Source of the DNA: Escherichia coli
GTDB taxonomy: Bacteria; Pseudomonadota; Gammaproteobacteria; Enterobacterales; Enterobacteriaceae
Assembly (NCBI RefSeq): GCF_041886205.1
Contig: NZ_CP169029.1
DNA: 64,000 nt
Direction: 5' to 3' (one strand)
Within the stretch, counting starts at the first letter, position 1; every line of letters begins with the position of its first letter. A program made the translations under genes and the position numbers. The notes under the pieces are model-generated. The model had not been told where the DNA came from. It was given only the letters and a program-made list of their open reading frames with translations, and searched no databases. Positions 33,945 to 62,035 of this stretch are shown here, in pieces.

Positions 33945-33986
33945 GTCATACCACTCGCCTGATTATTTTTAGCTATGTTGGATTTT

Positions 33987-34013
33987 GCCACGGTTTATAC
34001 CGTGGCTTTTTTT
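33987..34013 (+). terminator. Intrinsic terminator after allE
   Basis: GCCACGG-TTTATA-CCGTGGC hairpin followed by a run of seven T. Confidence 0.55.
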
Positions 34014-34097
34014 GTAACATTGCCTGATGCGCTTCGCTTATCAGGCCTACATGATCTCTGCAATATATAGAATTTGCGCGATTTTCAGGAAGGATAT

Positions 34098-45964: not shown

Positions 45965-47074
<1,110 letters not shown>

Positions 47075-47137
47075 TGGGCGGTATTCTGAAACGGCGATTG
47101 TCGTGAGAACAGAATGGTTGCACCAGAATACAGATAT

Positions 47138-47167
47138 AAAAAAACCGACATGACAGTCGGTTTTTTT
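47138..47167. terminator. Bidirectional intrinsic terminator (selU on plus, candidate sRNA on minus)
   Basis: A7-CCGAC-ATGACA-GTCGG-T7: hairpin flanked by an A-run and a T-run, so it works on either strand. Confidence 0.6.
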
Positions 47168-47225
47168 ATTTTTTCCGCCCAAGACTTGGTGGTTCCGGGC
47201 AGAAATGAAACAGTCCTCATCTAGC
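47140..47225 (-). ncRNA. Candidate antisense antitoxin sRNA (about 86 nt) of a type I toxin-antitoxin pair
   Basis: Transcript inferred from the promoter at 47232..47260 to the terminator at 47138..47167. Its 5' end (reverse complement of 47207..47225) is complementary to 47393..47411 upstream of the toxin ORF, about 19 bp including 2 G-U pairs. Confidence 0.5.
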
Positions 47226-47231
47226 AAGTGA

Positions 47232-47260
47232 ATTATAAGTCAGGATGCCTCCATATTCAA
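47232..47260 (-). promoter_or_regulatory. Near-consensus sigma70 promoter driving the candidate sRNA
   Basis: On the minus strand: TTGAAT, 17-nt spacer, TATAAT (perfect -10), oriented away from the toxin ORF. Confidence 0.6.
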
Positions 47261-47485
47261 ACAGCTATGTTGGCGATACAATCCCGACGCTAGTAGTGAT
47301 ACTGCCTCAAGGGATTACCGCAGTGCGGAAAAGTACTTTTAAGTCCTGGTCAGGATACAGGTGGTGCTGATTCTGGTGCTCTAATTTGGAGAGAGGCAGT
47401 CCTCATCTAGCACATGAAGAAAATCATAGTTACAGGCAACGTAAGGGTAAGCTGTGATTGTCTTTCTCCCTTAAGGGAGCAACGG

Positions 47486-47569
47486 ATGAAAACTTTTCTC
47501 GATAAAGTTCTCATCGTTCTTAAGGCGCTAATCGCGCTGCTGGAACTGATCCGTCAGTTTATTGAATAA
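47486..47569 (+). CDS. Candidate type I toxin, 27-aa hydrophobic peptide (DinQ/ZorO/TisB-like)
   Basis: ATG preceded by AAGGGAG with 7-nt spacing; product MKTFLDKVLIVLKALIALLELIRQFIE is a single amphipathic helix closely resembling DinQ as I remember it (shared ALIALLELIR); followed by a hairpin terminator. Below the ORF-track size cutoff. Confidence 0.6.
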   Translation: MKTFLDKVLIVLKALIALLELIRQFIE

Positions 47570-47589
47570 CTGAGGAAACGTAGCTAAGG

Positions 47590-47615
47590 CCGAAGGTTTA
47601 CCACCTTCGGTCTTT
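47590..47615 (+). terminator. Intrinsic terminator after the toxin ORF
   Basis: CCGAAGGT-TTACC-ACCTTCGG 8-bp stem followed by TCTTT. Confidence 0.5.
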
Positions 47616-47641
47616 AAAAAAACCGACATGACAGTTGGTTT
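47616..47641. repeat. Second copy of the A7-CCGACATGACAGTYGG hairpin (direct repeat of 47138..47163)
   Basis: AAAAAAACCGACATGACAGTTGGTTT matches 47138..47163 at 25 of 26 positions; the two copies bracket the toxin/sRNA module. Confidence 0.5.
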
Positions 47642-47672
47642 CATATTTATTGCCAAAATGCACACTGTTCAT

Positions 47673-47770
<98 letters not shown>

Positions 47771-47786
47771 AATCTAACACCTGTCA

Positions 47787-50201
47787 TCACCCCGCAAACT
47801 GCCTGAACAGCGCCTTACCCTTAACCAGTCTCGCGCCCAGCCAGCCGCCGAAAAGCGACAGCAGCAGCGCACCGCTGCACGGCAGAACAATCCACAATCG
47901 CCAGTCTGGCTCCCACGGGAAATCAAACACTTTCGCCTGCAACACTGCCAGTGCCGTTTCCGCACCAATTGCGGCCACCAGGCCGGAAACAAACCCAAGC
48001 ATGGCGAACTCACACCACAATGTCGTGCGCAGCAGTTTTTTCCCCGCACCGAGTGTGCGCCATACCACCAGCTCCTGATGACGCTGGCGCATTCCCACCT
48101 GCACCTGTGCCAGCAACAGCAACATACCGCAGGCGGTGACCAGCACCACCATCACCTCCAGCGCCCGACTTACCTGCTCCAGCACCTGACCGACCTGTTT
48201 TAAAATCGCGCCAATATCTAACAGGCTAATGGTCGGGAACTGGCGGTTGAGTTGCGTCAACATGCCGTTGCCATTCTCCCAGCGGAAACTGGTAAGCCAG
48301 CTCTGCGGTTGCCCGTCTAATGCCCCTTCCGGGAAAATAAAATAGAAATTAGGCCGCAGACTTTCCCAGTCCACTTTGCGCAGGCTGGTCACTTTAGCGC
48401 GGAACTCCTGGGTATCGCCCATAAAAGTCACGGTATCACCGAGGGCAACGTTTAAGCGTTTCGCCAGCCCCTCTTCCATCGACACTTCATCGGCTTTTGG
48501 CGGCCAGTTACCGGCGACAATCGGATTATGATCGGGCCGCGTATTTTGCCAGGTAAGATTGAGTTCGCGATTAAGCGCCTCATCTTCATTACCTTCTGTC
48601 GGCTTATCGTTAATCGCCGTCAGCCGCGCCCGCACTACCGGATAAAATGATTCCGGGACTATATGATGTTCCGCGAGGAACGCTTTTAGCGGTGCTACCT
48701 GTTCTGTGGCGATGTTAATTAAAAAGTAGTTCGGGCTTTCTGGCGGTAGCTGCTGCTGCCAGCGGTCGAGCAGATCGCCACGCAATACCAGCAACAGCGC
48801 CAGCAGCATAAAGGAGAGCGAAAATGCCGAAAGCTGACTTAACGTTGACCACGGCTGACGTAACAGGCGGCTAACCGCCAGGCGCAGAGGCAGCGATTTC
48901 AGCGTCATGCGGCGAAGTACATTCAGCAGCATCCAGCCCAGCACACCGCACAGCAAAGCCAGTACTACCGCGCCAGCCAGCACCGCCCAAAGCAGCATGC
49001 TGCCACCCATTAATCCGGCGAGCAGCAGCACAACCACCACACTGACAATCGGCAGATAAAACTTCAGCGGCCAGACGTTCGCTACCACATCATTACGTAA
49101 TACGCGTAAAGGCTGCGTTGCCAGCAACAAGCGATATGGTCGTAGCCCCACCAGCAGCGAGATGACCGTCATGGTGCCCAGCGCCCACAACCACGGCCAG
49201 AGGCTGGCTGGCGGTAGTGCAGCAGGCAGAACGGGCTTGAGCAGCACCATCAACACGTTTTCGAACAACAGGCCTATGGCCCCACCGGTAACGGCTGAAA
49301 GCGCCAGCACCATCAACCACTGACCGACGATTAGCTTACGCAGTTGCGCTCGCCCTGCCCCCAGCGTTTTGAGGATCGCCACCAGATCGTAGCGACTGCG
49401 ACAGTAATGATTCATCGCCACCGCCACCGCTGCCACTGCCAGCAGCAAGGTCAGAAGCGCCGAAAGCAGCAGGAACTGCTGCGAGCGTTCCATCGATCGC
49501 CCCAGCGCGCCTTCGTCCTGTTCCAGACCGTACCAGCGTTGTTCGGGTTTAAGCTGGGGTAACAACCATTTCTCATAGCCGTCGAGCTGGTTCTCGTTGC
49601 CGCCGAATTTATAACGCCAGGTGACCCGACTCCCCGGCTGCACGGCTCCGGTTTTATCGACATCCGCCAGATTCATCATCAGACGCGGAGCCATCTGGAA
49701 GGGGTTAAAACCAGAATCCGGTTCCTGAATCACTTCTCCGGCAATCCGCAAGGTGGCATCGCCCACGTCGATGGTGTCGCCTGTTTTCAGGTTAAGCAGC
49801 GCCATCAGGCGTGGGGCCAGCAATACGCTGCCCGCCTGCGGTTTCAGGCCAGGGGGATTAGTTTGCAGATCGCCATACATCGGGTAGATATCATCCACCG
49901 CTTTGACGTTCGCCAGCTGCGGTGTGTCGCCTGCAAATGTCATGGTGGCGAAAGTCAGCTGCTTGCCGACTTTCAGGCCGCGCTTTTGCGCTTCCTCCAG
50001 CCACGCTTGCGGCACTTCGCGCGAACTGCGCAACGCCCGATCGCCCGCCATAAACTCACGGCTTTGCTGGCTTAAGCCCTTCTCCATGCGATCGCTGATA
50101 TTGCCCAGCGCCAGCACGCAGGCCACCGCCAGGCTTAGCGCCAGCCAGACAATTAATAGCGACGGCGAACGCCATTCGCGCCAGAACCAACGTGCAATCA
50201 T
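47787..50201 (-). CDS. ybbP: ABC transporter permease YbbP (FtsX-like, LolE family)
   Basis: 804-aa ORF with duplicated FtsX-like permease architecture; 4-bp overlap with upstream ybbA. Confidence 0.85.
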   Translation of the reverse strand: MIARWFWREWRSPSLLIVWLALSLAVACVLALGNISDRMEKGLSQQSREFMAGDRALRSSREVPQAWLEEAQKRGLKVGKQLTFATMTFAGDTPQLANVKAVDDIYPMYGDLQTNPPGLKPQAGSVLLAPRLMALLNLKTGDTIDVGDATLRIAGEVIQEPDSGFNPFQMAPRLMMNLADVDKTGAVQPGSRVTWRYKFGGNENQLDGYEKWLLPQLKPEQRWYGLEQDEGALGRSMERSQQFLLLSALLTLLLAVAAVAVAMNHYCRSRYDLVAILKTLGAGRAQLRKLIVGQWLMVLALSAVTGGAIGLLFENVLMVLLKPVLPAALPPASLWPWLWALGTMTVISLLVGLRPYRLLLATQPLRVLRNDVVANVWPLKFYLPIVSVVVVLLLAGLMGGSMLLWAVLAGAVVLALLCGVLGWMLLNVLRRMTLKSLPLRLAVSRLLRQPWSTLSQLSAFSLSFMLLALLLVLRGDLLDRWQQQLPPESPNYFLINIATEQVAPLKAFLAEHHIVPESFYPVVRARLTAINDKPTEGNEDEALNRELNLTWQNTRPDHNPIVAGNWPPKADEVSMEEGLAKRLNVALGDTVTFMGDTQEFRAKVTSLRKVDWESLRPNFYFIFPEGALDGQPQSWLTSFRWENGNGMLTQLNRQFPTISLLDIGAILKQVGQVLEQVSRALEVMVVLVTACGMLLLLAQVQVGMRQRHQELVVWRTLGAGKKLLRTTLWCEFAMLGFVSGLVAAIGAETALAVLQAKVFDFPWEPDWRLWIVLPCSGALLLSLFGGWLGARLVKGKALFRQFAG

Positions 50202-61799: not shown

Positions 61800-62035
<236 letters not shown>

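Follow-up and report, generated by a model that had tools for sequence, protein, structure and literature searches.

The dinQ/agrA/agrB locus of Escherichia coli K-12 lies in the gap between arsR and gor, and the DinQ/AgrB mechanism has been validated there by experiment, as set out in the text of two papers (Weel-Sneve 2013, PMC3567139; Kristiansen 2016, PMC5066626). The text of the second paper also describes the dql (dinQ-like) genes dqlA and dqlB of Enterobacteriaceae, which occur on chromosomes and on plasmids. As defined there, the family is recognized by similarity to the dinQ 5′ UTR, signature residues, a sigma-70 promoter, a terminator and a Shine–Dalgarno sequence (SD); the same text gives 14 published dql genes, which in some strains co-exist with dinQ (PMC5066626). 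Antisense RNAs of dql genes are predicted in T1TAdb (PMC8594479). On pOXA-48 and other Inc plasmids DqlB/AgrB forms an addiction module, for which toxicity, its relief by AgrB and a requirement for base pairing have been demonstrated in experiments, including with compensatory mutations (PMC12365149).

The module considered here is flanked by selU (mnmH) and ybbP in a 64,000-nucleotide stretch of E. coli DNA (contig NZ_CP169029.1), referred to below as the window. Judged from its sequence, it is very probably a chromosomal paralogue of the dinQ/agrB type I toxin–antitoxin system, of the dql type. The initial annotation had read it as a type I toxin resembling DinQ, accompanied by a divergent antisense sRNA that acts on a 5′-UTR repeat, in the dinQ/agrB layout. 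Curated models, collinearity with K-12 and covariation all bear this out, and the ORF, promoter, terminators, repeat and duplex listed at that time are present in the sequence. The window and K-12 align at 63% identity over the span delimited by the agr and dinQ terminators, collinear throughout and with conserved islands. Among 13–16 loci drawn from several genera, substitutions in the ORF follow a coding pattern, and covariation links the sRNA 5′ end with its mRNA target and extends to the hairpin that sequesters the SD and to further UTR helices. This covariation and the coding pattern of the ORF assign the module to DinQ/AgrB ("dql" type) and not to ZorO/TisB. The module has a single agr gene and is bracketed by a 40-nt direct repeat (47137–47176 and 47615–47654), the second copy of which (+ strand) is a degenerate duplicate of the agr terminator region with 83% identity. 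An empty site with a single copy of this repeat was not seen among the sampled rows.

The toxin gene and its distribution

The toxin gene is a 27-codon ORF at 47486–47569 on the + strand, encoding the DinQ-family peptide MKTFLDKVLIVLKALIALLELIRQFIE; the NCBIfam model, the RefSeq annotation and the substitution pattern all point to it. The peptide passes NCBIfam model NF041472 (toxin_DinQ) with 40.9 bits against a cut-off of 30, and the K-12 translation agrees with the DinQ sequence that the initial annotation gave for comparison. It falls short of the DqlB model NF041473 (24.5 bits, cut-off 35), and no NCBIfam family beyond DinQ and DqlB was matched even at E ≤ 10. The homologous-protein search used as its query the 51-aa in-frame ORF that contains the 27-aa peptide. 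A Pfam-A scan of this longer ORF gave no match at E ≤ 10, with a release that probably lacked PF28061; PF28061.1 is a precomputed tag on near-identical database entries.

Substitutions across homologues fall 101/42/168 by codon position, and this third-position bias is a coding signature. ORF length and start position are kept across genera, and window-type peptides are also found in Serratia, Enterobacter, Photorhabdus, Salmonella and Klebsiella. An upstream in-frame extension from the ATG at 47414 was ruled out as coding because relatives carry frame-shifting indels there and their extensions lie in differing reading frames. The strong SD noted earlier, AAGGGAG, is present at 47473–47479, with a spacing to the ATG of 6 nt and not the 7 nt first given.

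The module is found in about 1,314 of 5,426 complete E. coli genomes (~24%), beside the canonical arsR–gor dinQ; about 75% are without it. Since 5,422 of the 5,426 genomes have the canonical locus, the selU–ybbP copy is an additional one. In K-12-like strains an rhsD element occupies the site instead, and no remnant of the module was detected at the K-12 rhsD junctions. K-12, O157:H7, O104:H4 and O111:H8 are without a second DinQ-family locus. Escherichia sp. E1V33 carries the module at the same site, with an identical protein and one synonymous change, and has the canonical dinQ too. Disrupted alleles are also known: SCU-482 has lost the target box, SD and start codon to a 108-bp deletion, and isolate 362 has an IS insertion in the promoter region.

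The module had been called unannotated, which holds for the supplied ORF track but not for RefSeq/PGAP. There the ORF product is named "damage-inducible type I toxin DinQ" (WP_349808740.1), and the protein accession is identical in the four carriers for which annotation was inspected. All intact carrier genomes in the sample have the ORF labelled dinQ, and public collections name this exact peptide on 1,000 contigs or more. It is the sRNA gene alone that has no annotation in the RefSeq records examined, even though it scores above the Rfam threshold. The toxin–antitoxin pair in the selU–ybbP gap is thus already known as a DinQ-family member, and as a second copy of a known family that public annotation already calls "dinQ" the module is ordinary and not new. 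No description of this specific locus was found in the literature searched, which took in the main text of the 2016 dql paper. Understanding of type I toxin–antitoxin systems is unchanged by the finding and its practical value is modest: a real and conserved gene of 27 codons escapes a first-stage ORF track, as does its sRNA partner, and inventories of E. coli type I toxins should count two DinQ-family loci in ~24% of genomes.

The antisense RNA and the toxin transcript

The predicted antitoxin is an AgrB-family antisense sRNA of ~89 nt on the − strand (47137–47225), whose 5′ 19 nt can pair with the toxin 5′ UTR. Rfam model RF02891 (AgrB) matches at full length (model positions 1–84) at 47136–47224 (−), with 53.6 bits against a gathering score of 40. 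Its 5′ end would lie at 47225, judging from the promoter and the start of the Rfam model, and its predicted fold has a central stem-loop followed by the terminator. The opposite-strand promoter proposed earlier, TTGAAT-17-TATAAT, was found at 47260–47232 (−). It is near-consensus (10 of 12 positions), its −35 block is conserved in homologous loci, and it is the sole sigma-70 match in 46900–47900. The sRNA terminator, placed at 47138–47167 in the initial annotation, is a perfect 14-bp palindromic, bidirectional intrinsic terminator at 47136–47169 with T-runs on both strands. It aligns with the Rfam AgrB terminator stem and is the predicted end of the AgrB-like sRNA on the − strand; on the + strand it probably also ends selU.

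The candidate toxin promoter (47254–47282, +) comes from alignment with homologues. Its −10, TACAAT (47277–47282), lies 6 nt upstream of a G aligned with the mapped +1 of K-12 dinQ, and its poor −35-like hexamer, TATTCA (47254–47259; 3 of 6 positions), overlaps, back to back, the −35 of the sRNA promoter. Homologues from Serratia and Photorhabdus keep the −10 in the form TATCAT or TATAAT, with the exception of Serratia H1w, which has ATATAG in the aligned columns. In K-12 the window TACAAT aligns with the −10 TATGAT. TATAAC was considered as the K-12 dinQ −10 and rejected, since the published SD coordinates place the −10 at TATGAT, inside the LexA box.

By alignment with K-12, the toxin mRNA is predicted to run from 47289 to 47617 (+), about 329 nt, with a structured 5′ UTR of 197 nt. 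Element 1, ACTGCCTC (47301–47308, +), is the counterpart of K-12 element 1 and pairs with 47393–47400 in the minimum free energy (MFE) fold of the full-length mRNA. The sRNA target box (47386–47412, +), which includes element 2, GGAGAGAG (47388–47395), is homologous to the K-12 AgrB target G88–A119. Element 3, CTTTCTCC (47462–47469), and the SD-sequestering hairpin CTCCC-TTAA-GGGAG (the 3:4 pairing) together span 47462–47479 (+) and are recognized by the inverted repeat and by covariation across 16 loci. In the same 16 loci the hairpin is paired in 95.6% of alignment cells and its closing pair co-varies, and the 2:3 duplex shows a compensatory UA>AU swap in the window (alignment pair 148–223). 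The 16-locus 5′ UTR alignment has invariant blocks and a consensus fold in which 13 of 30 pairs carry compensatory changes; the window fits all of them. The mRNA would end at a hairpin terminator with a short T tail at 47586–47614 (+), which confirms the terminator reported 3′ of the ORF. Its arms are 92% complementary and it aligns with the K-12 dinQ terminator; with only TTT after the stem, it went unflagged by a consensus scan.

Folding reproduced the published closed, open and AgrB-closed behaviour of K-12 dinQ (model from PMC5066626), which served as a control. For the full-length window mRNA the predicted SD is closed (probability unpaired 0.05) and the 1:2 duplex is in the MFE structure. 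In a series of 5′ truncations no open SD was obtained at the position homologous to K-12 +44; it took a 5′ end at 47380 or further downstream to open the SD.

What follows is a proposed mechanism, in which transcription starts, processing of the mRNA, toxicity, targeting to the membrane and sRNA repression are all predicted purely by homology. A weak sigma-70 promoter (−10 TACAAT, no LexA operator) would produce the ~329-nt toxin mRNA, which at full length would be translationally inert, with element 1 paired to element 2 and the SD locked in its hairpin. Processing at the 5′ end, as in K-12 dinQ, would release element 2 for pairing with element 3 and so open the SD, allowing synthesis of a 27-aa helical peptide that would act on the inner membrane. 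The strong divergent promoter would meanwhile supply the ~89-nt AgrB-like sRNA, whose first 19 nt would pair with the UTR box at 47393–47411, overlapping element 2. This pairing may re-close the SD hairpin, create an RNase III substrate, or both, and in this way prevent toxin synthesis.

Pairing with the target and alternative readings

The 16-nt direct repeat CAGTCCTCATCTAGCA noted in the initial annotation is present at 47211–47226 and 47397–47412, and over an extended 22 nt the two copies are 91% identical. The duplex of about 19 bp with two G–U pairs claimed at that time agrees with the computed helix: an uninterrupted 19 bp (17 Watson–Crick and 2 G·U) between the sRNA 5′ end at 47225 and mRNA 47393–47411, followed by an A·A mismatch. 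For the first 35 nt of the sRNA the modelled duplex reaches −47.3 kcal/mol, against −24.4 ± 2.8 for 500 shuffles (minimum −35.4), so the predicted pairing is beyond chance expectation. In a 13 × 13 matrix of sRNAs and targets, cognate duplexes are the strongest almost everywhere.

The window cognate duplex is the weakest in the family (−46 to −48 kcal/mol, versus −54 to −67), and its distal half is degenerate, while Serratia and Photorhabdus relatives keep 31–35 nt of near-perfect pairing. It is energetically near K-12 AgrA–dinQ (−46.6), a pair reported to be non-repressing; the AgrA helix is broken by mismatches, whereas the window helix is contiguous. These values would suit a decaying, silent dql relic, with a toxin that is scarcely expressed and a pairing that is eroding, kept only by recent common descent. 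The weak toxin −35, the deletion and IS-disrupted alleles, the rhsD element in place of the locus in most strains and the only partial reproduction of the published structural switch in silico point the same way. However, this copy keeps an intact ORF, SD and start codon as well as an intact near-consensus sRNA promoter, its protein does not differ among the four annotated carriers and E1V33 (which has one synonymous change), and the changes of the window lineage in the 2:3 duplex and SD hairpin are compensatory, not disruptive. In OrzO/zorO and IstR-1/tisB, among other type I systems, contiguous duplexes of ~18–21 bp suffice. A relic is considered unlikely, and a working dinQ/agrB paralogue is preferred.

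A short pairing could also permit crossing between loci. The sRNA might act mainly in trans on canonical dinQ mRNA, or AgrA/AgrB on the selU–ybbP toxin, forming one cross-regulated network. The window sRNA pairs with one natural E. coli/E. albertii dinQ allele at −44.7 kcal/mol, close to the cognate −46.0, and K-12 AgrA pairs with the window mRNA at −40.8. Against this, the window sRNA reaches only −39.4 with the K-12 dinQ allele (versus −48.2), K-12 AgrB only −34.6 with the window mRNA (versus −59.9), and in E1V33, which has both loci, cross pairs are 13–26 kcal/mol weaker than cognate ones. For plasmid-borne DqlB, repression is lost once 4 nt are mismatched (PMC12365149). Such a network is thus very unlikely. 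A looser version, in which the short pairing and near-cognate complementarity of this LexA-independent paralogue to some dinQ alleles would allow cross-talk with SOS-controlled dinQ/agrAB, and presence or absence of the module would shift DinQ phenotypes, is also improbable, if a little less so. If it were true, strain differences in UV sensitivity, membrane depolarisation and persistence would follow the alternation between module and rhsD.

The PGAP name, and the passing of the NCBIfam DinQ equivalog model, would fit the copy being a LexA-regulated orthologue, that is, "the" SOS-induced dinQ. However, CTGT-N8-ACAG with at most one mismatch is absent from the selU–ybbP gap and CTG-N10-CAG is absent anywhere in the module, while identical scans, as a positive control, pick out the known operator at all arsR–gor dinQ loci of Escherichia and Citrobacter. 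The site also differs, with the canonical locus held separately in nearly all genomes and both loci in E1V33, and the peptide differs at its N and C termini. That the copy is the SOS-induced dinQ is accordingly highly improbable. In the absence of a LexA box the "damage-inducible" name is probably a misnomer, and the RefSeq label probably wrong for the selU–ybbP copy.

Membership in the ZorO/OrzO or TisB/IstR-1 families has practically no chance of being right: an overall arrangement in which a divergent sRNA goes with a long 5′ UTR and a small helical peptide, and a similarity of zor 5′ UTRs to plasmid dinQ 5′ UTRs noted in one paper (PMC11264685), favour it, but it is refuted at the sequence-family level by Rfam OrzO-P scores of 24.1 and 19.5 bits, below the gathering score of 60, by NCBIfam matches to DinQ and DqlB only, and by nucleotide collinearity with dinQ/agr. 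The earlier description "ZorO/TisB-like" stands as a general architectural analogy and falls as a family assignment.

Comparison with known systems

With zorO/orzO and tisB/istR-1 the module has in common, by analogy, a divergent sRNA that acts in trans, a small membrane peptide and a 5′ UTR that is long and processed, but it has no sequence-family match to them; neither such a match nor a LexA box was found that would mark it as TisB/IstR-1.

The K-12 dinQ locus is much closer. Like it, the module encodes a 27-aa peptide with the common core IVL-ALIALLELIR and has a divergent AgrB-family sRNA with a 5′ end complementary to a box ~75–110 nt upstream of the start codon. Both have an mRNA, predicted in the window, of ~330 nt (the K-12 +1 transcript is 326 nt) with a 5′ UTR of ~197 nt, an SD locked in a hairpin, elements 1–4 and a weak-tailed terminator. 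The differences are in setting and detail. The features of a canonical SOS-regulated dinQ (b4613 orthologue) are not found, as the window copy is without LexA operators, lies at selU–ybbP instead of arsR–gor and has one agr gene, not two. Its start codon is ATG and that of K-12 is GTG. The window peptide is 3 aa longer at its N terminus, ends in QFIE where K-12 DinQ ends in FLLQLLN, and is more charged and more amphipathic (muH 0.43 versus 0.20). Its sRNA–target helix is 19 bp with 2 G·U, compared with ~34 bp in K-12.

The plasmid DqlB/AgrB systems belong to the same family and have the same architecture, at ~67–77% nucleotide identity over partial lengths. They are addiction systems with 35-nt complementarity, whereas the window module is chromosomal and sits at a fixed site. 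Although its peptide is below the NCBI cut-off for DqlB (24.5 versus 35 bits), the module shows exactly the features that define the dql genes as a family.

Parts and family identity of the selU–ybbP module

Between the stop codons of selU (mnmH, 47074) and ybbP (47787) is a 712-bp gap that carries, on sequence evidence, a type I toxin–antitoxin module of the DinQ/AgrB family. The initial annotation, which proposed a DinQ/ZorO-like module here, was correct in kind, and all of the gap features that it named are found in the sequence. The putative toxin is the expected 27-codon ORF (47486..47569, plus strand), encoding MKTFLDKVLIVLKALIALLELIRQFIE. This peptide passes the NCBIfam DinQ equivalog model NF041472 (40.9 bits, cut-off 30), falls short of the DqlB one (24.5 bits, cut-off 35), and has no match among other NCBIfam families at E <= 10. 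The divergent minus-strand sRNA (47136-47224) matches the full Rfam AgrB model (RF02891; 53.6 bits, gathering score 40). The DinQ half of the proposal thus stands, and the ZorO half falls away: OrzO-P scores for the sRNA are 24 and 19.5 bits, with a gathering score of 60. Over its whole length, agr terminator to toxin terminator, the module is collinear with the K-12 agr–dinQ locus (63% identity over 525 columns), and the conserved islands are the agr body, the antisense box, the 5' UTR, and the ORF core.

The Shine–Dalgarno sequence (SD) AAGGGAG (element 4/SD, 47473-47479, plus strand) lies 6 nt from the ATG, not 7 as first counted, and a terminator hairpin (47586-47614, plus strand) follows the ORF. 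The near-consensus promoter assigned to the opposite strand, TTGAAT-17-TATAAT (47260..47232, minus strand), is the sole sigma-70 consensus match in a 1-kb scan, and the sRNA terminator is a perfect 14-bp bidirectional agr/selU terminator serving both strands (47136-47169). The 16-nt direct repeat (47211-47226 and 47397-47412) grows to 22 nt at 91% identity. Besides element 4/SD, counterparts of the other three elements in the dinQ 5' UTR model of PMC5066626 are present on the plus strand as element 1, ACTGCCTC (47301-47308), element 2, GGAGAGAG (47388-47395), and element 3, CTTTCTCC (47462-47469).

The candidate toxin -10, TACAAT (47277-47282, plus strand), is conserved in the aligned window-type loci of Serratia and Photorhabdus, its counterparts being TATCAT or TATAAT in S. 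oryzae and P. khanii. The toxin -35, TATTCA, is weak and overlaps the sRNA -35 back to back. Six nucleotides downstream of the -10, the K-12 +1 (GTTAGC), placed from SD coordinates in PMC5066626, lines up with a conserved G-(T/C)TAG. The predicted toxin mRNA runs from ~47289 to 47617 (~329 nt; 326 nt in K-12).

The family is a known one, and public E. coli genomes already carry an annotation for the gene. The ORF had been called unannotated, which holds only for the ORF track first used: in sampled carrier genomes RefSeq/PGAP names it "dinQ: damage-inducible type I toxin DinQ" (WP_349808740.1), and the exact peptide appears under the DinQ name on at least 1,000 contigs in public collections. 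The AgrB-family sRNA passes the Rfam gathering score yet is unannotated in the four RefSeq records examined for it. The dql (dinQ-like) genes of Enterobacteriaceae chromosomes and plasmids, dqlA and dqlB, go back to Kristiansen et al. (2016), who describe some strains holding dql genes alongside dinQ, with a UTR architecture common to both (PMC5066626). Antisense RNAs of dql genes are predicted in T1TAdb (PMC8594479), and plasmid DqlB/AgrB was validated experimentally in 2025, compensatory mutations included (PMC12365149). A literature search that covered the main text of the 2016 paper found none that names the selU–ybbP site or gives its peptide sequence.

Homologues, antitoxin pairing, and mRNA folding

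One genome per species was scanned with a degenerate ALIALLELIR-core pattern, giving 73 loci. These include three groups: a canonical DinQ-type (Escherichia, Citrobacter, Serratia, Pantoea, Kosakonia, Leminorella), a window-type ending KAL[IV]ALLELIRQFI[ED] (Escherichia sp. E1V33, Enterobacter, Serratia, Photorhabdus khanii), and a multi-copy Photorhabdus/Xenorhabdus type. Matches in Streptomyces and Firmicutes sit within long ORFs and are chance. The ORF keeps 27-28 codons, the same start position, and an ATG or GTG start across genera, with homologue substitutions of 101/42/168 by codon position. A 51-aa in-frame upstream extension (from 47414) is not conserved as protein. The Photorhabdus/Xenorhabdus peptide type, VKAFIDTAIIVLKALIALLELIRAFLK, has expanded to up to four loci per genome, with tandem pairs ~850-900 bp apart, and the P. 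khanii window-type (QFID) copy adjoins a group II intron match. The Enterobacter asburiae window-type locus may be rearranged; it lacks an AgrB match at gathering score, has an agr-terminator-like hairpin, AAAAAACCGACTGGTGAGGTCGGTTTTTT, on the 5' side of the toxin UTR (columns 79-103 of A2, the 16-sequence UTR alignment), and lies near an IS1222 frameshift element.

Of the 16 loci scanned, 12 have a divergent Rfam AgrB match upstream. When sRNA 5' ends are set against 5' UTRs in a 13 x 13 matrix, the cognate pair is strongest nearly throughout because changes in the sRNA go with changes in its target box, as in Leminorella (TTAGTTAAAGAGAGTCTCACT with AGTGAGACTCTCTTTAACTAA) and Pantoea (TTAGACAGAGGCTGTTCC with GGAACAACCTCTGTCTAA). 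In the window, the first 35 nt of the sRNA form a duplex of -47.3 kcal/mol with the mRNA (500 shuffles, -24.4 +/- 2.8). A start at 47225 gives an unbroken 19-bp helix (17 Watson–Crick, 2 G.U) followed by an A.A mismatch, in agreement with the duplex of about 19 bp and two G-U pairs predicted at the outset. As in K-12, the target overlaps element 2. Of all cognate duplexes in the family the window's is the weakest (-46 to -48 kcal/mol). It is near the K-12 AgrA–dinQ pair (-46.6), a pair reported inactive (PMC5066626); however, the AgrA helix is broken by mismatches whereas the window helix is contiguous. It seems unlikely that the module is a slowly decaying relic rather than an active toxin–antitoxin pair.

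The UTR consensus fold of A2 has compensatory changes in 13 of 30 pairs. At pair 148-223 of the 2:3 duplex, 12 sequences have U-A, whereas the window and Serratia H1w have A-U. Pairing in the alternative SD hairpin reaches 95.6% of cells, as against only 38-58% in slid controls. Its closing pair is A-U in 10 sequences and C-G in 2 (window, P. khanii), and wobble variants occur in others. RNAfold predicts that the full-length window mRNA forms the 1:2 duplex and closes the SD (P unpaired 0.05). K-12 control folds match the published series: closed for the full-length +1 form (0.05), open for the processed +44 form (0.21), and closed when the AgrB site is blocked (0.02). By analogy with K-12 dinQ, 5' processing would free the SD in the window mRNA. 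This step rests on homology because folding gives no open SD at the position homologous to +44; the SD is open and closable by the sRNA only with a 5' end at or beyond 47380. A nearly invariant CUCU is also paired to the SD GGAG in the consensus fold, in 16/16 loci (A2 columns 135-138 with 237-240; 47379-47382 with 47476-47479 in the window), which may be an additional anti-SD interaction. The CUCU belongs to a conserved GCTCT block just upstream of element 2, the K-12 counterpart of which falls inside the AgrB target (G88-A119).

Distribution and genomic site

At least 80% of the gap is present in 1,314 of 5,426 complete E. coli genomes (~24%). Canonical dinQ, between arsR and gor, is present in 5,422 of the 5,426, and module carriers therefore have two family members. 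Escherichia sp. E1V33 also has both loci, with the module at the identical allS–selU–[module]–ybbP–ybbA site (5 differences in 712 bp). In K-12 the entire gap is swapped for a 6.3-kb rhsD element with ylbG, and homology ends exactly at the two stop codons. The gap (47075-47786) has these two main alternative occupants in E. coli, the module or a K-12-like rhsD element, and a small third class in which the match runs 12 nt past the selU stop. The module is absent from O157:H7, O104:H4, and O111:H8. Relatives on plasmids, annotated as dinQ or dqlB, share only 67-77% identity with it.

Two loss alleles were found. In SCU-482, a 108-bp deletion (47398-47505) takes the target box, SD, and start codon/first toxin codons and keeps the sRNA gene. 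In isolate 362, an insertion sequence with an integrase-core CDS lies between the sRNA -35 and toxin -10 (47260-47266), with an apparent 7-bp duplication. Public assemblies also contain chimeric peptides with a window-type N terminus and a canonical DinQ C terminus (MKTFLDKVLIVLKALIALLELIRFLLQLLN; ...IRQLLNN), which points to exchange between the two paralogous loci by recombination or gene conversion, or else to chimeric assembly. Read-through variants without a stop codon occur in two proteins (P0012 and P0013).

A 40-nt direct repeat (47137-47176 and 47615-47654, 83% identity) flanks the module. Its left copy is the agr/selU bidirectional terminator, and its right copy, which directly follows the toxin terminator, is a degenerate duplicate. 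The repeat could be a tandem-duplication scar (compare agrA/agrB in K-12 and the Photorhabdus tandem toxins) or a recombination scar; none of the sampled E. coli genomes showed an empty site with one copy only. The space toward ybbP (47667-47760) is filled by REP/BIME-type repeats with partial naRNA4 and ES036 matches. Related features were noted at 61854-62032 and 33951-34085, and the window elsewhere holds full naRNA4 copies, STnc480, sroB, and a tRNA.

Comparison with canonical dinQ

K-12 dinQ is SOS-controlled. A CTG-N10-CAG scan detects TACTGTATGATTATCCAGTT-type boxes at all arsR–gor loci of Escherichia and Citrobacter and no site in the module, and the gap has no CTGT-N8-ACAG site with at most one mismatch. 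Promoter regions of the window-type loci lack a LexA-type site, the single S. oryzae match being downstream of the ORF, and none is found in the Leminorella, Pantoea, or Serratia dinQ loci. Because operators occur only in the Escherichia and Citrobacter arsR–gor loci, SOS control seems to have been added in a particular lineage and not to be general to the family. With no LexA box, the window copy is probably without it, and its PGAP name "damage-inducible" is probably wrong.

Three traits are specific to the window copy, all modest refinements: it probably lacks SOS control, its antitoxin pairing is shortened, and it alternates with the rhsD element. The module also has one agr gene where canonical K-12 dinQ has two, and its peptide is more charged and amphipathic than canonical DinQ (mean H 0.34 and muH 0.43, versus 0.53 and 0.20).
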